A DNA stretch of 64,000 bases. Origin: Eledone cirrhosa. Taxonomy: Eukaryota. Numbering within the stretch: position 1 is the stretch's first letter; each line of letters begins with the position of its first letter. Below, piece by piece: positions 11,772 to 58,995 of the stretch. The notes beneath the pieces were generated by a model, which saw nothing but the letters and a program-made list of their open reading frames with translations, made no database searches and was not told the DNA's origin. Location: assembly GCA_964016885.1 (NCBI GenBank), contig OZ024745.1, positions 53,940,001 through 54,004,000 of the forward strand. The letters run 5' to 3'. The translations under genes and the position numbers were made by a program.

Positions 11772-12132
11772 TGGAATAGAATGAAACGAAATTTCATTTC
11801 TCACTCTTAGTACGGCACTTACTTAAATGTAAGTATGTATGTATACGTACATACATATATGTATACAGACGTACAGTAGCATGTATATATATATATATAT
11901 ATATATATATATATATATATATATATATATATATATATATATATATATATATATATACATACCGGTACACATATATATATATGTACGTATCAGTTTAGCG
12001 GACGTTTATTATAACGCTCGCTTTGTCCGTTTGTAAACAAACTGACAGCCTGATTTATGCCGTACGGTGTTAAGGCAACCACGTCACCTTTTTGTTCAAC
12101 ACTGACACAGGAACGATGTACTAGTTTCAAGC
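11772..12132 (-). mobile_element. Retrozyme-like element copy, homologous to the 468-bp repeat unit, starting with the 3' half of a hammerhead
   Basis: Minus strand begins GAAA-CTAG-TA-CATCG (12128-12114). The body aligns with 12895-13148 and with the 468-bp unit. It is flanked and interrupted by (TA)n. Confidence 0.7.
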
Positions 12133-12310
12133 TATATATATATATATATATATATATATATATATATATATATATATAAGACGGTTAAAATTCCCGAGAT
12201 CCATGGACGAGTTCTCTCCAGCGGTCTCTGTCCCTCATTATCGCTGCCATGTCCTGCGTCTCCAACAGACCAGGACAGATATATATATATATATATATAT
12301 ATATATATAT

Positions 12311-12546
12311 AAAGGACGATATGTTATGTCTTCATTACGTTTATTGAGTAGTGACCTGCGTTTCAATATTTATCAGCTCAAGGTTCGATCTGTATCGATC
12401 TAGCCCGACTCATTACAACAACAGAGTTCCGAAGAGCTTTTGATTCCAGAGTCGGGCTAGATCGATACATATCGAACCTTGAGCTGATCAATCGCGAAAC
12501 GCGTGTCACTACTCAATAAACGTAATAAAGACATAACATGTCCTTT
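12311..12546. repeat. Inverted repeat, ~100-bp arms (12311-12411 / 12449-12546), each with a degenerate hammerhead-like core
   Basis: Arms are reverse complements. Plus arm reads gagCTGATCAatcgcGAAAcgcgtgtcactactcAATAAA; minus arm reads gagCTGATAAatattGAAAcgcaggtcactactcAATAAA. Confidence 0.8.
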
Positions 12547-12749
12547 TTATTATTACACTCTGCTTTGCTCTACACCTCTATACTTACTGGAAACTACGCA
12601 TCGAGTACTCACTCTGGTGAACCTACAGTAACTGGACGTTACAATCCCTAGCTATGTATATATATATATAACGAAGGAAGTGTGGTAAGCAACCAGATGG
12701 ACCATAACGCACCAGAGTACTCAATACATAGCAGAGTATAAATATTTAG

Positions 12750-12864
12750 TATAGAAATGGCTTCTACAGGGCTAGAACTGTTTCATTCGAAGGAAATCAT
12801 CAGGAAAGCCCTGATGATTTCCTTCGAATGAAACAGTTCTAGTCCTGTAGAAGGCATTTCTATA
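12750..12864. repeat. Palindrome (55-bp arms, 5-nt spacer) giving two back-to-back hammerhead cores
   Basis: ...gaaatcatcagg aaagc cctgatgatttc... The plus arm has CTGATGA...GAAAcagttctagtcctgTAgaagg but a truncated stem I. Confidence 0.9.
12759..12810 (-). ncRNA. Type I hammerhead ribozyme motif
   Basis: GGCUUUC-CUGAUGA-UUUCCUUCGAAU-GAAA-CAGUUCUAGCCCUG-UA-GAAGCC. The core is intact, stem I is GGCUU(U)C/GAAGCC, stem III is ACAG/CUGU, and the triplet is GUA. Stem II opens with a U-U mismatch. Confidence 0.75.
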
Positions 12865-12894
12865 TATTATATATATATATATATATATATATAT

Positions 12895-13392
12895 AAGTAT
12901 GCATGTATACGTACATACATATATGTATACAGACGTACAGTAGCATGCACATATATATATATATATATATATACATACACATATATATACATATGCATAC
13001 AGGTACACATACATATATGCACGTATCAGTTTAGCGGCGCTAACGTCGCTTTGTTCGTTTGTAAACAAACTGAACAGCCTGAATTTATGCCATACGGTGT
13101 TAAGGCAACCACGTCACCTTTTTGTTCAACACTGACACAGGAACGATGTGTCAGTGTTGAACAAAAAGGTGACGTGGTTGCCTTAACACCGTATGGCATA
13201 AATTCAGGCTGTTCAGTTTGTTTACAAACGAACAAAGCGACGTTAGCGCCGCTAAACTGATACGTGCATATATGTATGTGTACCTGTATGCATATGTATA
13301 TATATGTGTATGTATATATATATATATATATATATGTGCATGCTACTGTACGTCTGTATACATATATGTATGTACGTATACATGCATACTTA
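12895..13392. repeat. Near-perfect palindrome, ~245-bp arms, 7-nt loop (GGAACGA, 13140-13146); right arm continues unpaired to ~13445
   Basis: Arms are reverse complements, as shown by mirror-image ORFs 12772-13068(-) and 13218-13403(+). Confidence 0.95.
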
Positions 13393-14253
13393 CATTTAAG
13401 TAAGTGCCATACTAAGAGTGAGAAATGAAATTTCGTTTTCATTTTGTTTTAATTTATATATATATATATATATATATATATATATATATATATATATATA
13501 TCTGTGTGTGTGTGTGTGTGTGTGTGTGTGTATGTGTGTGTGTGTGTGCGTGTGCGCGCGCGCGTGTGTGTGTATGCCCGAAACCACTTGGTGCCACTGT
13601 CGGTATTATACCTATCACTGTATCCCCCTCTGCATCTTTCCATGCACTGAGTAACCCCATACTCTCTCTCTCTCTCTCTCTCTCTCTCTCTCTCTCTCTC
13701 TCTCTCTCTCTCTCTCTCTCACTCTCTTTCTCTCTCTCTCTCTCTCTCTCTCTCTCTCTCTCTCTCTATGTATATATATATCAATATATATATCACCTCC
13801 CCACTCTCACCAAGCGTGAAGCTAATAACACCGTGTACCATTGACTCCTGCGTTGTTTGTTTGTTTGTCATTTTGAACTATATATATATATATATATATA
13901 TATATATATATATATATATATATATATATATATATATATATTTATTTATATTTATATATATATATATGTAATATATGTATGTGTATATGCCTATGTACGT
14001 GTGTATGGGAGAATGGTTGTTGCAGCGGCTGGGTTTGAAACATTGTTTTGAAACAGATTTTGTATATTGAAGGGTTATTCTGCCCATAACTTATCAGTTG
14101 TGGGATGGAAGTCAATTGAGAAAATTACTGATAAGTGTGACGAAAATATAGTTTTGACAGACTAATAAATAAGTAATGGATTAGTTAACAATAAAGAAGT
14201 GAACTAGAACATGTACGCGTGTTTTTATTCACTGAATGACGAATGACCATTCC

Positions 14254-14484
14254 AGTATGTATGTATGTATGTATGTATGTATGTATGTATGTATGTATGT
14301 ATGTATGTATGTATGTATGTATGTATGTATGTATGTATGTATGTATGTATGTATGTATGTACGTACGTATGTATGTATGTATGTGTGTATGTATGTATGT
14401 ATGTATGTATGTATGTATGTATGTATGTATGTATGTACGTACGTATGTATGTATGTATGTGTGTATGTATGTATGTATGTATGT
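14254..14484. repeat. (TATG)n microsatellite
   Basis: Direct reading of the sequence. Confidence 0.95.
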
Positions 14485-57088: not shown

Positions 57089-57540
57089 TAAATATATATA
57101 TATATATAAATATATATATATATATATATATAAATATATATATATAAATAAATATATATATATATAAATATATATATATAAATAAATATATATATATATA
57201 AATATATATATATATATATATAAAATATATATATATATAAATATATATATATATATATATATAAATATAAATATATATATATATATATAAATATATATAT
57301 ATATATAAATATATATATATAAATATATATATATATATAAATATATATAAATTTATATACAAATATATATATATAAATATATATATATATATAAATATAT
57401 ATATATAAATATATATATATATATATATATACATATATATATATATTTATATATATATATATATATATATATATATATATATATATATATATATATATAT
57501 ATATATATATATATATATATATATATATATATATATATAT

Positions 57541-57614
57541 ATGAGAAAGTGTGAACCCGACGGCAGAGCTCAAGCCGTTTCGACGGCTATTTCTGGGCTA
57601 GGTTAGACACACTA
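57541..57614 (-). repeat. Third copy of the 74-bp GC-rich module, a direct repeat of 57015-57088
   Basis: atgagaaagtgtgaacccgacggcagagctcaagccgtttcgacggctatttctgggctaggttagacacacta repeated 526 bp downstream within (TA)n. Confidence 0.95.
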
Positions 57615-58014
57615 TAAATATATATATATATATATATATAAATATATATATATATATATATAAATATATATATATAAATAAATATATATATATATATATA
57701 TATAAATAAATATATATAAATATATATATATATATATATATATAAATATATATATATATATATATATATATATATAAATATATATATATACAATTAAGTT
57801 AAAGATGTACATCCATATATGTATACTGAAATACTAGTATGTATATGAATACACACACGTATACATATGTAGATGTACCAAGTTTTTTTCACTGGTCACT
57901 TTACTGTGAGTGGCCAGCTATTCTGTATGTAAGCACACAGACAAACCGGTTTTTAGAGTCATACTGGTTTTTGAGGAAACACCTTTCCTCTATTCTCCAG
58001 AAAGCCAGACAAGG

Positions 58015-58059
58015 AATATTGAACTAGTTTCGTTGTTGTTACAACTCATCAGCAATATT
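58015..58059 (-). ncRNA. Minimal type I hammerhead ribozyme, copy 1
   Basis: AAUAUUG-CUGAUGA-GUUGU(AACA)ACAAC-GAAA-CUAG-UU-CAAUAUU. It has a perfect 7-bp stem I, a 5-bp stem II, an intact core and a palindromic AACUAGUU stem III. Predicted cut after GUU, between 58022 and 58021. Confidence 0.9.
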
Positions 58060-58482
58060 TACCTATCTTCCGGCCTCTCTAGAGAATCGTAAAAGCACAT
58101 ATCGTTATATGCTTTTTCTATGATAATTAGTAGTGGGCAGACTAATTTGCATAGAGTGTGAGTAAGTACCGGTTCAACGGAGACGATAAAAACAAATAAC
58201 GAAACGAAATTAAATTTCGTTTCGTTTGTAACTCACTTTTGTATGACTGACGCTTAAACAATTAAGTTAAAGATGTACATCCATATATGTATACTGAAAT
58301 ACTAGTATGTATATGAATACACACACGTATACATATGTAGATGTATCAAGTTTTTTTCACTGGTCACTTTACTGTGAGTGGCCAGCTATTCTGTATGTAA
58401 GCACACAGACAAACCGGTTTTTAGAGTCATACTGGTTTTTGAGGAAACACCTTTCCTCTATTCTCCAGAAAGCCAGACAAGG

Positions 58483-58527
58483 AATATTGAACTAGTTTCG
58501 TTGTTGTTACAACTCATCAGCAATATT
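58483..58527 (-). ncRNA. Minimal type I hammerhead ribozyme, copy 2
   Basis: Identical to 58015-58059, offset 468. Confidence 0.9.
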
Positions 58528-58950
58528 TACCTATCTTCCGGCCTCTCTAGAGAATCGTAAAAGCACATATCGTTATATGCTTTTTCTATGATAATTAGTA
58601 GTGGGCAGACTAATTTGCATAGAGTGTGAGTAAGTACCGGTTCAACGGAGACGATAAAAACAAATAACGAAACGAAATTAAATTTCGTTTCGTTTGTAAC
58701 TCACTTTTGTATGACTGACGCTTAAACAATTAAGTTAAAGATGTACATCCATATATGTATACTGAAATACTAGTATGTATATGAATACACACACGTATAC
58801 ATATGTAGATGTACCAAGTTTTTTTCACTGGTCACTTTACTGTGAGTGGCCAGCTATTCTGTATGTAAGCACACAGACAAACCGGTTTTTAGAGTCATAC
58901 TGGTTTTTGAGGAAACACCTTTCCTCTATTCTCCAGAAAGCCAGACAAGG

Positions 58951-58995
58951 AATATTGAACTAGTTTCGTTGTTGTTACAACTCATCAGCAATATT
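58951..58995 (-). ncRNA. Minimal type I hammerhead ribozyme, copy 3
   Basis: Identical to 58015-58059, offset 936. Confidence 0.9.

Follow-up and report, generated by a model that had tools for sequence, protein, structure and literature searches.

Among Penelope-like elements (PLEs), those of the Hydra clade carry a C-terminal endonuclease (EN+), bear hammerhead ribozymes, many of which in published members have a U-U at positions 10.1/11.1, and target (TA)n; Hydra-1_Obim of Octopus bimaculoides is one of them (Craig et al. 2021, PMC8557442). In Penelope itself, head-to-head inversion, a palindromic junction and a tail on one inverted end have been described (Arkhipova et al. 2013, PMC3846280; Schostak et al. 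2008, PMC2377424), and in vitro Poseidon of Anolis cuts AT-rich DNA on both strands and extends both, with reverse transcription beginning at two internal sites that bound the tail and hammerhead cleavage being dispensable (Frangieh et al. 2024, PMC11167929). A U3-A8 core, an enlarged helix II and opposite-strand pairs 100-700 bp apart, mostly in truncated PLEs, are also on record, together with ~9,000 minimal hammerhead motifs in Xenopus tropicalis (Cervera and de la Pena 2014, PMC4209133), as are U4C in a viroid and U10.1-U11.1 (Perreault et al. 2011, PMC3088659). Metazoan retrozymes, of which the axolotl has up to 120,000 (Cervera and de la Pena 2020, PMC7229834), have been proposed to be mobilized by PLEs (PMC7229834; Li et al. 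2026, 10.64898/2026.07.22.740005). Here we analyze a 64,000-nt stretch of Eledone cirrhosa DNA (assembly GCA_964016885.1, contig OZ024745.1, positions 53,940,001 to 54,004,000 of the forward strand; hereafter the window, in which all coordinates are counted from its first letter), which contains a Hydra-type PLE and six kinds of hammerhead-like module lying in or against (TA)n. We consider it probable, with good confidence, that these modules are abundant hammerhead-bearing repeat families with 3' ends at (TA)n, likely Hydra-clade PLE ends and retrozymes moved by the same enzymes, in which both ends of the cut target would prime on one RNA.

We refer to the modules as A (12121), B (12496), C (12759), D (15376), E (55654 and copies) and F (58015-58995), and to the coding element, at 35675-40332, as P. 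From this 3.0-Gb genome, which is rich in microsatellites, we drew an unselected sample of 80 stretches of 10 kb, evenly spaced over 16 contigs (800 kb in total), and scanned it with a full type-I hammerhead descriptor accepting canonical, U4A, U4C and U3-A8 cores. The sample contains 88 matches (67 canonical, 10 U4A, 2 U4C and 9 U3-A8) distributed over 39 stretches, while eight shuffles of the same sequence gave 10 matches together, about one per shuffle, so that hammerheads are ~70 times more frequent than in shuffled sequence. Matches with U3-A4-A8 (two), G3-C8 (one) and A3-U8 (one) cores were at shuffle level and are excluded from the 88, and four other core variants gave none in the 800 kb. 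The density is ~110 descriptor matches per Mb of sample, or ~3 x 10^5 if extrapolated, and when four window families are joined to the sample hammerheads, 22 sequence clusters result.

The sample hammerheads are strongly associated with (TA)n. With tandems collapsed, 62 of 73 have (TA)6 within 250 nt downstream of the predicted cut, versus 22% at matched positions, and the nearest TA tract lies at a median of 131 nt downstream and 346 nt upstream. A divergent partner accompanies 38 of the 73, a convergent one a single hammerhead and both kinds another, the two arms of one pair being separate entries in this tally; P values for the enrichment near TA and of partners are overstated because the arms of one pair are not independent, while the effect itself is large. 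By hand count, the first 100 listed genome matches of the P core likewise have 14 divergent neighbors within 5 kb versus one convergent. Moreover, a module from a different locus was matched by 105 of 283 islands that lie between TA tracts, versus 7 of 282 control segments, a lower bound because the module library is incomplete; in the window, 11 of 21 islands match, and the island at 12179-12279 is one between TA tracts in which no hammerhead module was matched. The proposal of the preliminary description, that PLE-end or retrozyme modules target (TA)n and may explain many of this genome's islands, is thus supported, with amendments given below, by enrichment near (TA)n and in inverted pairs in sequence that was not chosen for it.

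As for the motifs of the window, those quoted in that description are all present, at the positions given or at most one base away: ACTAGT at 12120-12125, next to the minus-strand GAAA 12128-12125, in module A; ACGCGT at 12499-12504 in B; CTAG in both arms of 12759-12855 in C; ACAATTGT at 15379-15386 in D; GAGCTC at 55674-55679, with copies at 57018-57090 and 57544-57616, in E; and AACTAGTT in F, in three 468-bp units at least 99.8% identical. Among the listed modules, none in the window satisfies the full type-I descriptor except F, in all three copies, and C, in its minus arm; A, D and E are 3' halves that break off before GAAA and lack the 5' core, and in B the core letters are present (12429-12435, U4C) with helix I mismatched. 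The degenerate modules do, however, resolve to whole cores in other members of their families, among which the type-I features (C3-G8 or U3-A8, GAAA, NUH and three helices) are all found, with a deviation at position 4 in B, D and the PLE; U-U at 10.1/11.1 is a feature of A, C and P, and helices show compensatory changes between subfamilies. Self-complementary stem III loops had also been claimed. The palindromes are real, but helix III of C and E is 4-5 bp long and closes an 8-9 nt loop that contains the palindrome without itself being self-complementary, so these two are not of the minimal dimer type. The bare signature, GAA followed by a 6- or 8-nt palindrome, is weak: the window has 37 of them, and 50 shuffles gave 18.6 on average (range 8-28). 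A relaxed descriptor also matched at 45063-44990 (minus strand) with a canonical core, a long helix II and weak helices, off TA tracts; this match may be due to chance. Rfam microRNA matches in the window were simple-repeat noise below gathering scores.

The modules do lie against TA, with (TA)6 16-232 nt downstream in 13 of 15 arms, the exceptions being the two inner F units. Their layout as inverted pairs or tandems also holds for most, since B, C, D, the PLE and a sibling of A (12888-13454) are head-to-head pairs and F is in tandem only, but not for the mirror copies of E. The E 3' fragment on the plus strand (55631..55703; GAAA 55664-55667, predicted cut after 55686, no U3-A8 5' core) is convergent with that on the minus strand at 57018..57090, and both belong to a local inverted duplication; the same E fragment has a third local copy at 57544..57616 (minus). 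The non-PLE DNA inverted along with them (55761-56111 and 56572-56936) is 94% identical, with an unrelated common repeat in the middle.

The coding element P spans 35675..40332, on both strands. The window copy has an open reading frame (ORF) for reverse transcriptase (RT) and GIY-YIG on the minus strand at 38700-36792, 5'-truncated so as to begin at residue 73, with frame breaks near residues 517 and 663. Its 3' end with a tail lies at 35675, and the inverted arm, 38817-40332, is untailed; a short repeat of 9-nt period sits at the inversion junction (38695-38760). (TA)n is found at both ends in the window and at nearly all ends in 25 query-fetched loci. The preliminary description called the element once-autonomous, with inverted layout and TA flanks; layout and flanks fit, but its family is more than once-autonomous, being young, with 132 scored matches at 96-100% identity and many open frames of ~713 aa. 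This single ORF encodes RT followed by a C-terminal GIY-YIG, as its Atlas neighbors carry RVT_1 and GIY-YIG, and residues 555-709 match GIY-YIG clusters at 0.95-0.97. Numbered in the L247 frame, DKT, a CxCx5C linker, CxxC and CxH are found at residues 119, 568, 666 and 694, and RLCW or RLRW-R stands in place of the N-terminal RWK motif of Hydra elements. By DKT and the three cysteine motifs, and by comparison by eye with the supplement rows for Hydra-1_Obim, P probably belongs to the Hydra clade. In the unselected sample, matches to Hydra-type ORFs span 17.3 kb of the 800 kb in 15 stretches (L166-L245), and mostly have only 30-49% identity to the P family, so many more families exist.

P also has a hammerhead-shaped motif of its own, absent from the earlier list, at 40258..40308 on the plus strand (U4A core 40263-40269, U-U at 10.1/11.1, GAAA 40283-40286, predicted cut after 40303), with a second copy at 35833-35783 on the minus strand. 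In tandem P copies, hammerhead and tail lie directly upstream of the ORF. Shape and position are those expected of a hammerhead in a pseudo-long terminal repeat, and the core is not canonical but U4A, which was found in 28 of 31 fetched arms and has 21,952 exact matches in the genome, or 91% of the 24,016 matches to the same stretch minus its first two bases. We read the U4A hammerhead as a variant within the Hydra clade.

A second module could be linked to an ORF. In three loci (L073, L074 and L085), E lies 680-780 nt downstream of another Hydra-type ORF, 42-47% identical to that of the window PLE family, and the loci are collinear from ORF end to hammerhead at 69-91%. The U3-A8 core of E, present in 12 of 61 fetched arms (a count in which the helix I test was offset by one base, in cut position), was confirmed by three descriptor matches. 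Two of the seven families, P and E, are thus identified from their sequence context as PLE ends; for A, B, C, D and F, no link to an ORF was found. A link of D to an ORF through L106 was rejected, as another repeat lies between.

Family members were obtained by genome searches that returned as first-look candidates 1,810 for A, 2,659 for B, 1,659 for C, 51 for D, 863 for E and 1,150 for the P end; per family, 40 of these were scored and 25-30 loci fetched. In the window, B is a head-to-head pair (12312..12656, both strands), whose plus arm has the U4C core, a helix II of ~60 nt, GAAA at 12496-12499, a predicted cut after 12507 and a tail reaching 12656, while the minus arm, 12411-12312, is short and lacks the core. 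The U4C core with a helix II region of ~60 nt recurs in 11 of 29 fetched arms of B and in 12 of 27 of D. The D pair (15181..15436, both strands) has a short plus arm (GAAA 15376-15379, predicted cut after 15387) and a tailed minus arm, neither with the U4C 5' core of the family. C is a hairpin (12671..12867, both strands). On its minus strand the hammerhead is complete, with helix I from 12811, the core at 12803-12797, GAAA at 12784-12781 and a predicted cut after 12765; its plus arm is the short one and lacks the 5' strand of helix I. The canonical core is present in 25 of 65 fetched C arms, most others being the arm without helix I. The C tail at 12671-12717 turns into an E-type tail (~12717) at a short common motif, and L006 has a similar switch, which suggests template jumps between families. 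The 1.7 kb from 11769 to 13454 hold a stack of four insertions, namely A, B, C and the A pair, in which each abuts the TA flank of the next.

A and F differ from these in forming tandems. A is a probable tandem retrozyme of ~490 nt with a canonical core in 34 of 39 fetched arms and copies 440-500 nt apart; in the window it is represented by a 5'-truncated minus-strand copy with a 3' half-hammerhead (11769..12132; GAAA 12128-12125, predicted cut after 12119) and by the head-to-head pair 12888..13454 (both strands), with a short left arm and a tailed right arm that are 99% identical. F (57791..59393, minus strand) consists of three 468-bp units and a partial one, its 3' end against TA at 57790. 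Each full unit has a canonical minimal hammerhead (cores at 58052, 58520 and 58988), which scores 37.7 bits with Rfam Hammerhead_HH9 (E 6e-6), under the gathering score of 52. F and A are 70-74% alike over 73 and 119 nt, and an F-type array occurs at a second locus (L200). A genome search with the F hammerhead gave no match, the search being one that skips very common words, and F relatives are present in the unselected sample. Since A is in tandem and shares sequence with F, both fit retrozymes: they are made of non-coding tandem units with a type-I hammerhead per unit, as in that class. Self-cleavage of the tandem retrozymes A and F, predicted from their sequence, is plausible. Between 60% and 79% of sampled words of an F unit (57790-58258) were found in sequence runs from four organisms and four studies, and no RNA dataset was among the listed runs matching the unit.

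The inverted pairs, by contrast, can give no partner for dimeric cleavage, because their arms are on opposite strands and a transcript crossing both is a single hairpin (predicted at -95.7 kcal/mol for module C). Only tandems can supply dimer partners.

The geometry of the pairs is strict. Each family has two fixed 3' end sites 60-110 nt apart, the longer form carrying the tail. Of 94 inverted pairs, counted without fifteen loci that duplicate the window or one another, 86 combine a tailed with an untailed arm, 6 have both arms short, 1 has both long and 1 is unclassified. The combination of tailed and untailed arms is seen in 38 of 41 pairs of C, 33 of 35 of E, 4 of 4 of D and 3 of 5 of B, and it holds in 30 of 31 pairs found outside their own family's query set. 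Which arm extends further 5' is evenly split between the tailed arm (36 pairs) and the short arm (38 pairs), and in 12 pairs the two are equal. Both arms also share their variants: at non-CpG sites, the minor allele is common to the two in 25 of 31 cases for the PLE, 26 of 41 for E and 6 of 6 for C, whereas with shuffled partners the shared fraction is 0.17, 0.16 and 0.10, respectively. Two independent RNA templates per pair were rejected on this ground (D and B having too few sites), and the sharing points to both arms being copied from one template. One-arm T/C differences in C (6 of 41 pairs) and G/T differences in E (10 of 35) had been considered as RNA editing or inheritance of the whole palindrome; best-hit selection by the query suffices to produce them.

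The 5' ends of the arms cluster 35-54 nt upstream of the predicted cut (24 of 73 arms for the PLE, 30 of 40 for C and 45 of 63 for E), even though the core starts at -41 in P, -40 in C and -87 in E relative to the cut. Ends within 2 nt of the cut itself are few (one for the PLE, none for C, one for E and 2 of 13 for A). An inversion starting at the cleavage site was therefore rejected, since only 4 of 189 arms begin there. The A pair at 12888-13454 would suit such a start, as its center, 13140-13146, sits at the predicted cut site, which is why the pair includes no hammerhead, but cleavage is dispensable in vitro for another PLE (PMC11167929). The ribozyme appears to be a passenger of the 3' region of the template and not the maker of insertion ends.

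We propose that a Hydra enzyme would cut (TA)n, that both cut ends would prime on a single RNA, one at each of the two start sites, and that the two complementary DNAs (cDNAs) would be joined where they stop, often just 35-54 nt upstream of the hammerhead cut site. The outcome would be short hairpin islands, many without the 5' core and, because they lack it, unable to cleave. Tails of unrelated families (in the window, for example, 12690-12740, 15225-15260 and 35700-35760) often open with a hairpin closed by RCTC...GAGY, seen in 8 of 21 clusters against a shuffle mean of 1.4, and a GAGYRCY motif is found in 7 of 21 against 0.5; the motifs were chosen from the same sequences, so that this test is not independent, and they are a candidate signal for the enzyme. 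A more far-reaching form of this proposal, which we hold tentatively and expect rather to fail than to stand in all its parts, is that this genome records how the second half of Penelope integration proceeds, in which one RNA primes both (TA)n cut ends from two start sites and the cDNAs join at some 55-85 nt, mass-producing hammerhead hairpins (of the order of 10^5, and at least a third of the islands between TA tracts), with C a 135-nt self-renewing hairpin parasite and a PLE family that has risen to ~22,000 copies with a U4A core.

A different order of events could produce the same pairs. One cDNA might fold back and self-prime, or an antisense template might do so (PMC3846280), giving a two-tailed hairpin that, on integration, would lose either of its tails at random to the endonuclease. 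Resolution by the endonuclease is how Craig et al. account for the tail (PMC8557442), and fold-back of this kind accounts both for identical alleles in the two arms and for the even split of the tailed arm. The split does contradict simple fold-back from a single primed end, because that predicts the tailed arm to be always longer. In many pairs the junction overlaps a natural hairpin (the gap is negative in 20 of 35 E pairs), and a junction with a 1-nt spacer occurs three times at the P core among the first 100 matches listed. Yet both tail ends are RT start sites in vitro, where both target strands are extended (PMC11167929), and two long arms occur in only 1 of 94 pairs, a pair that continues into a tandem ORF. 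We therefore judge fold-back unlikely, if still the kind of explanation that deserves attention, and prefer priming of both target ends on one RNA.

For C in particular, one may doubt that a longer parent exists. It could be an independent element of ~135 nt that starts at the first base of the hammerhead and is recopied from read-through transcripts of hairpin copies: no common sequence was found upstream of helix I, either in the 30 loci that a query from the tail side retrieved or in 20 arms taken from elsewhere, and the fetched loci contain no linked ORF and no head-to-tail C copies, the tandem organization of retrozymes being absent from C in all of them. However, the 5' ends of the PLE and E cluster equally far from the cut, and both of these families have an ORF upstream; as they do so and just 3 of 63 E arms extend further, a rare long parent of C could be missed. 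Junctions also differ between C copies, and the C tail shares a motif with that of E. An apparently fixed C junction was an effect of ascertainment, because it was seen only in the set fetched with a junction-containing query; in copies found otherwise it varies, and only the clustering at the 5' edge of the hammerhead stays. An independent C is in our view a possible but doubtful origin, and a truncated PLE end remains our preferred one. That the islands are miniature inverted-repeat transposable elements (MITEs), foldback DNA elements or repair or assembly palindromes in (TA)n with an incidental likeness to hammerheads is very improbable, for although C resembles a small inverted-repeat element, the bare GAAA-palindrome signature is merely twice chance and the E mirror pair of the window is a local inverted duplication, full hammerheads stand ~70-fold above shuffles with compensatory helix changes, arms are unequal and differ by 3-5% with varying junctions, two families run into RT/GIY-YIG ORFs, and ORF links and tandem units contradict it for the PLE, E, A and F.

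Several observations weigh against assigning all modules to Hydra-clade PLEs and retrozymes primed from two cut ends. Sequence searches of Pfam and the PDB did not recognize the P ORF. No upstream ORF was linked to B, C or D in 50, 60 and 25 loci, respectively, with 1.5-kb flanks, and as such a link is missing for A, B, C, D and F, their mobilization by Hydra enzymes is argued from shared anatomy. In the sample, 178 of 283 islands have no match in the module library, and 33 of 73 hammerheads have no inverted partner inside their own 10-kb stretch; 10 of 28 tailed C copies are single, and 8 of the 94 pairs break the one-tail rule. The shared alleles could alternatively have arisen through gene conversion between the arms or because a single cDNA folded back. 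Finally, minimum-energy folds of five monomers or fragments from the window show no hammerhead shape and are no more stable than shuffles.

Two further features of the window lie outside these families. A 6.6-kb array with a 21-nt period and higher-order repeats occupies 22732-29381, with long open frames on both strands, and 15973-17513 is a broken fragment of a non-long terminal repeat retroelement with an RNase H-like match (RVT_3, E 3e-4, under the cut-off).

Islands of the kind described here are to be annotated as PLE ends or retrozymes, not as MITEs, microRNA hairpins or unique sequence. One-tailed inverted PLE insertion is represented by thousands of short natural products of strict geometry, which offer countable predictions for the in vitro system, and the family-wide U4A and U4C cores are substrates for asking if the ribozyme must cut.

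How do these families compare with what has been described? The families are new but their kinds are known: retrozymes and Hydra PLEs have been published, as have TA targeting, inverted ends and tails. What is added here is counting, which covers how dense the hammerheads are, what share of the islands they account for, the one-tail ratio, the single template, the pile-up of 5' ends and a U4A core throughout one family. No paper that treats these families, or priming from two ends in PLEs, was listed in our literature searches, and a repeat annotation of Octopus vulgaris published in 2026 does not use the word "hammerhead" in its main text. While the Hydra cores in File S2 of Craig et al. (PMC8557442) all begin CUGA, the families here also have U4A (~22,000 exact copies), U4C and U3-A8; their tails measure 60-110 nt against 30-40, RLCW or RLRW stands where RWK is described, and non-coding fragments greatly outnumber coding copies. 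The U3-A8 core, enlarged helix II and opposite-strand pairing are shared with the motifs of PMC4209133, and U4C and U-U with those of PMC3088659; "U4A" does not occur in the main text of the latter, and none was noticed in PMC4209133. The helix II of ~60 nt in B, D and E is longer than the 7-8 bp described for PLE hammerheads. A and F resemble metazoan non-long terminal repeat retrozymes in that their tandem units are non-coding and each contains a canonical type-I hammerhead of minimal form (PMC7229834; 10.64898/2026.07.22.740005), and with 468-490 nt their units are at the upper end of the quoted range of 150-450 bp; they differ in their fixed-site ends in (TA)n and PLE-type inverted pairs. 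The extrapolated ~3 x 10^5 hammerheads would be many compared with the counts for Xenopus and axolotl, with the proviso that descriptors differ. With Penelope and Poseidon, the modules share head-to-head inversion, a palindromic junction, a tail on one end and two 3' ends resembling start sites. That pattern is described there without counts and with the steps after priming left open, whereas the one-tail ratio, the split between arms, allele sharing and the 5' pile-up are counted here.

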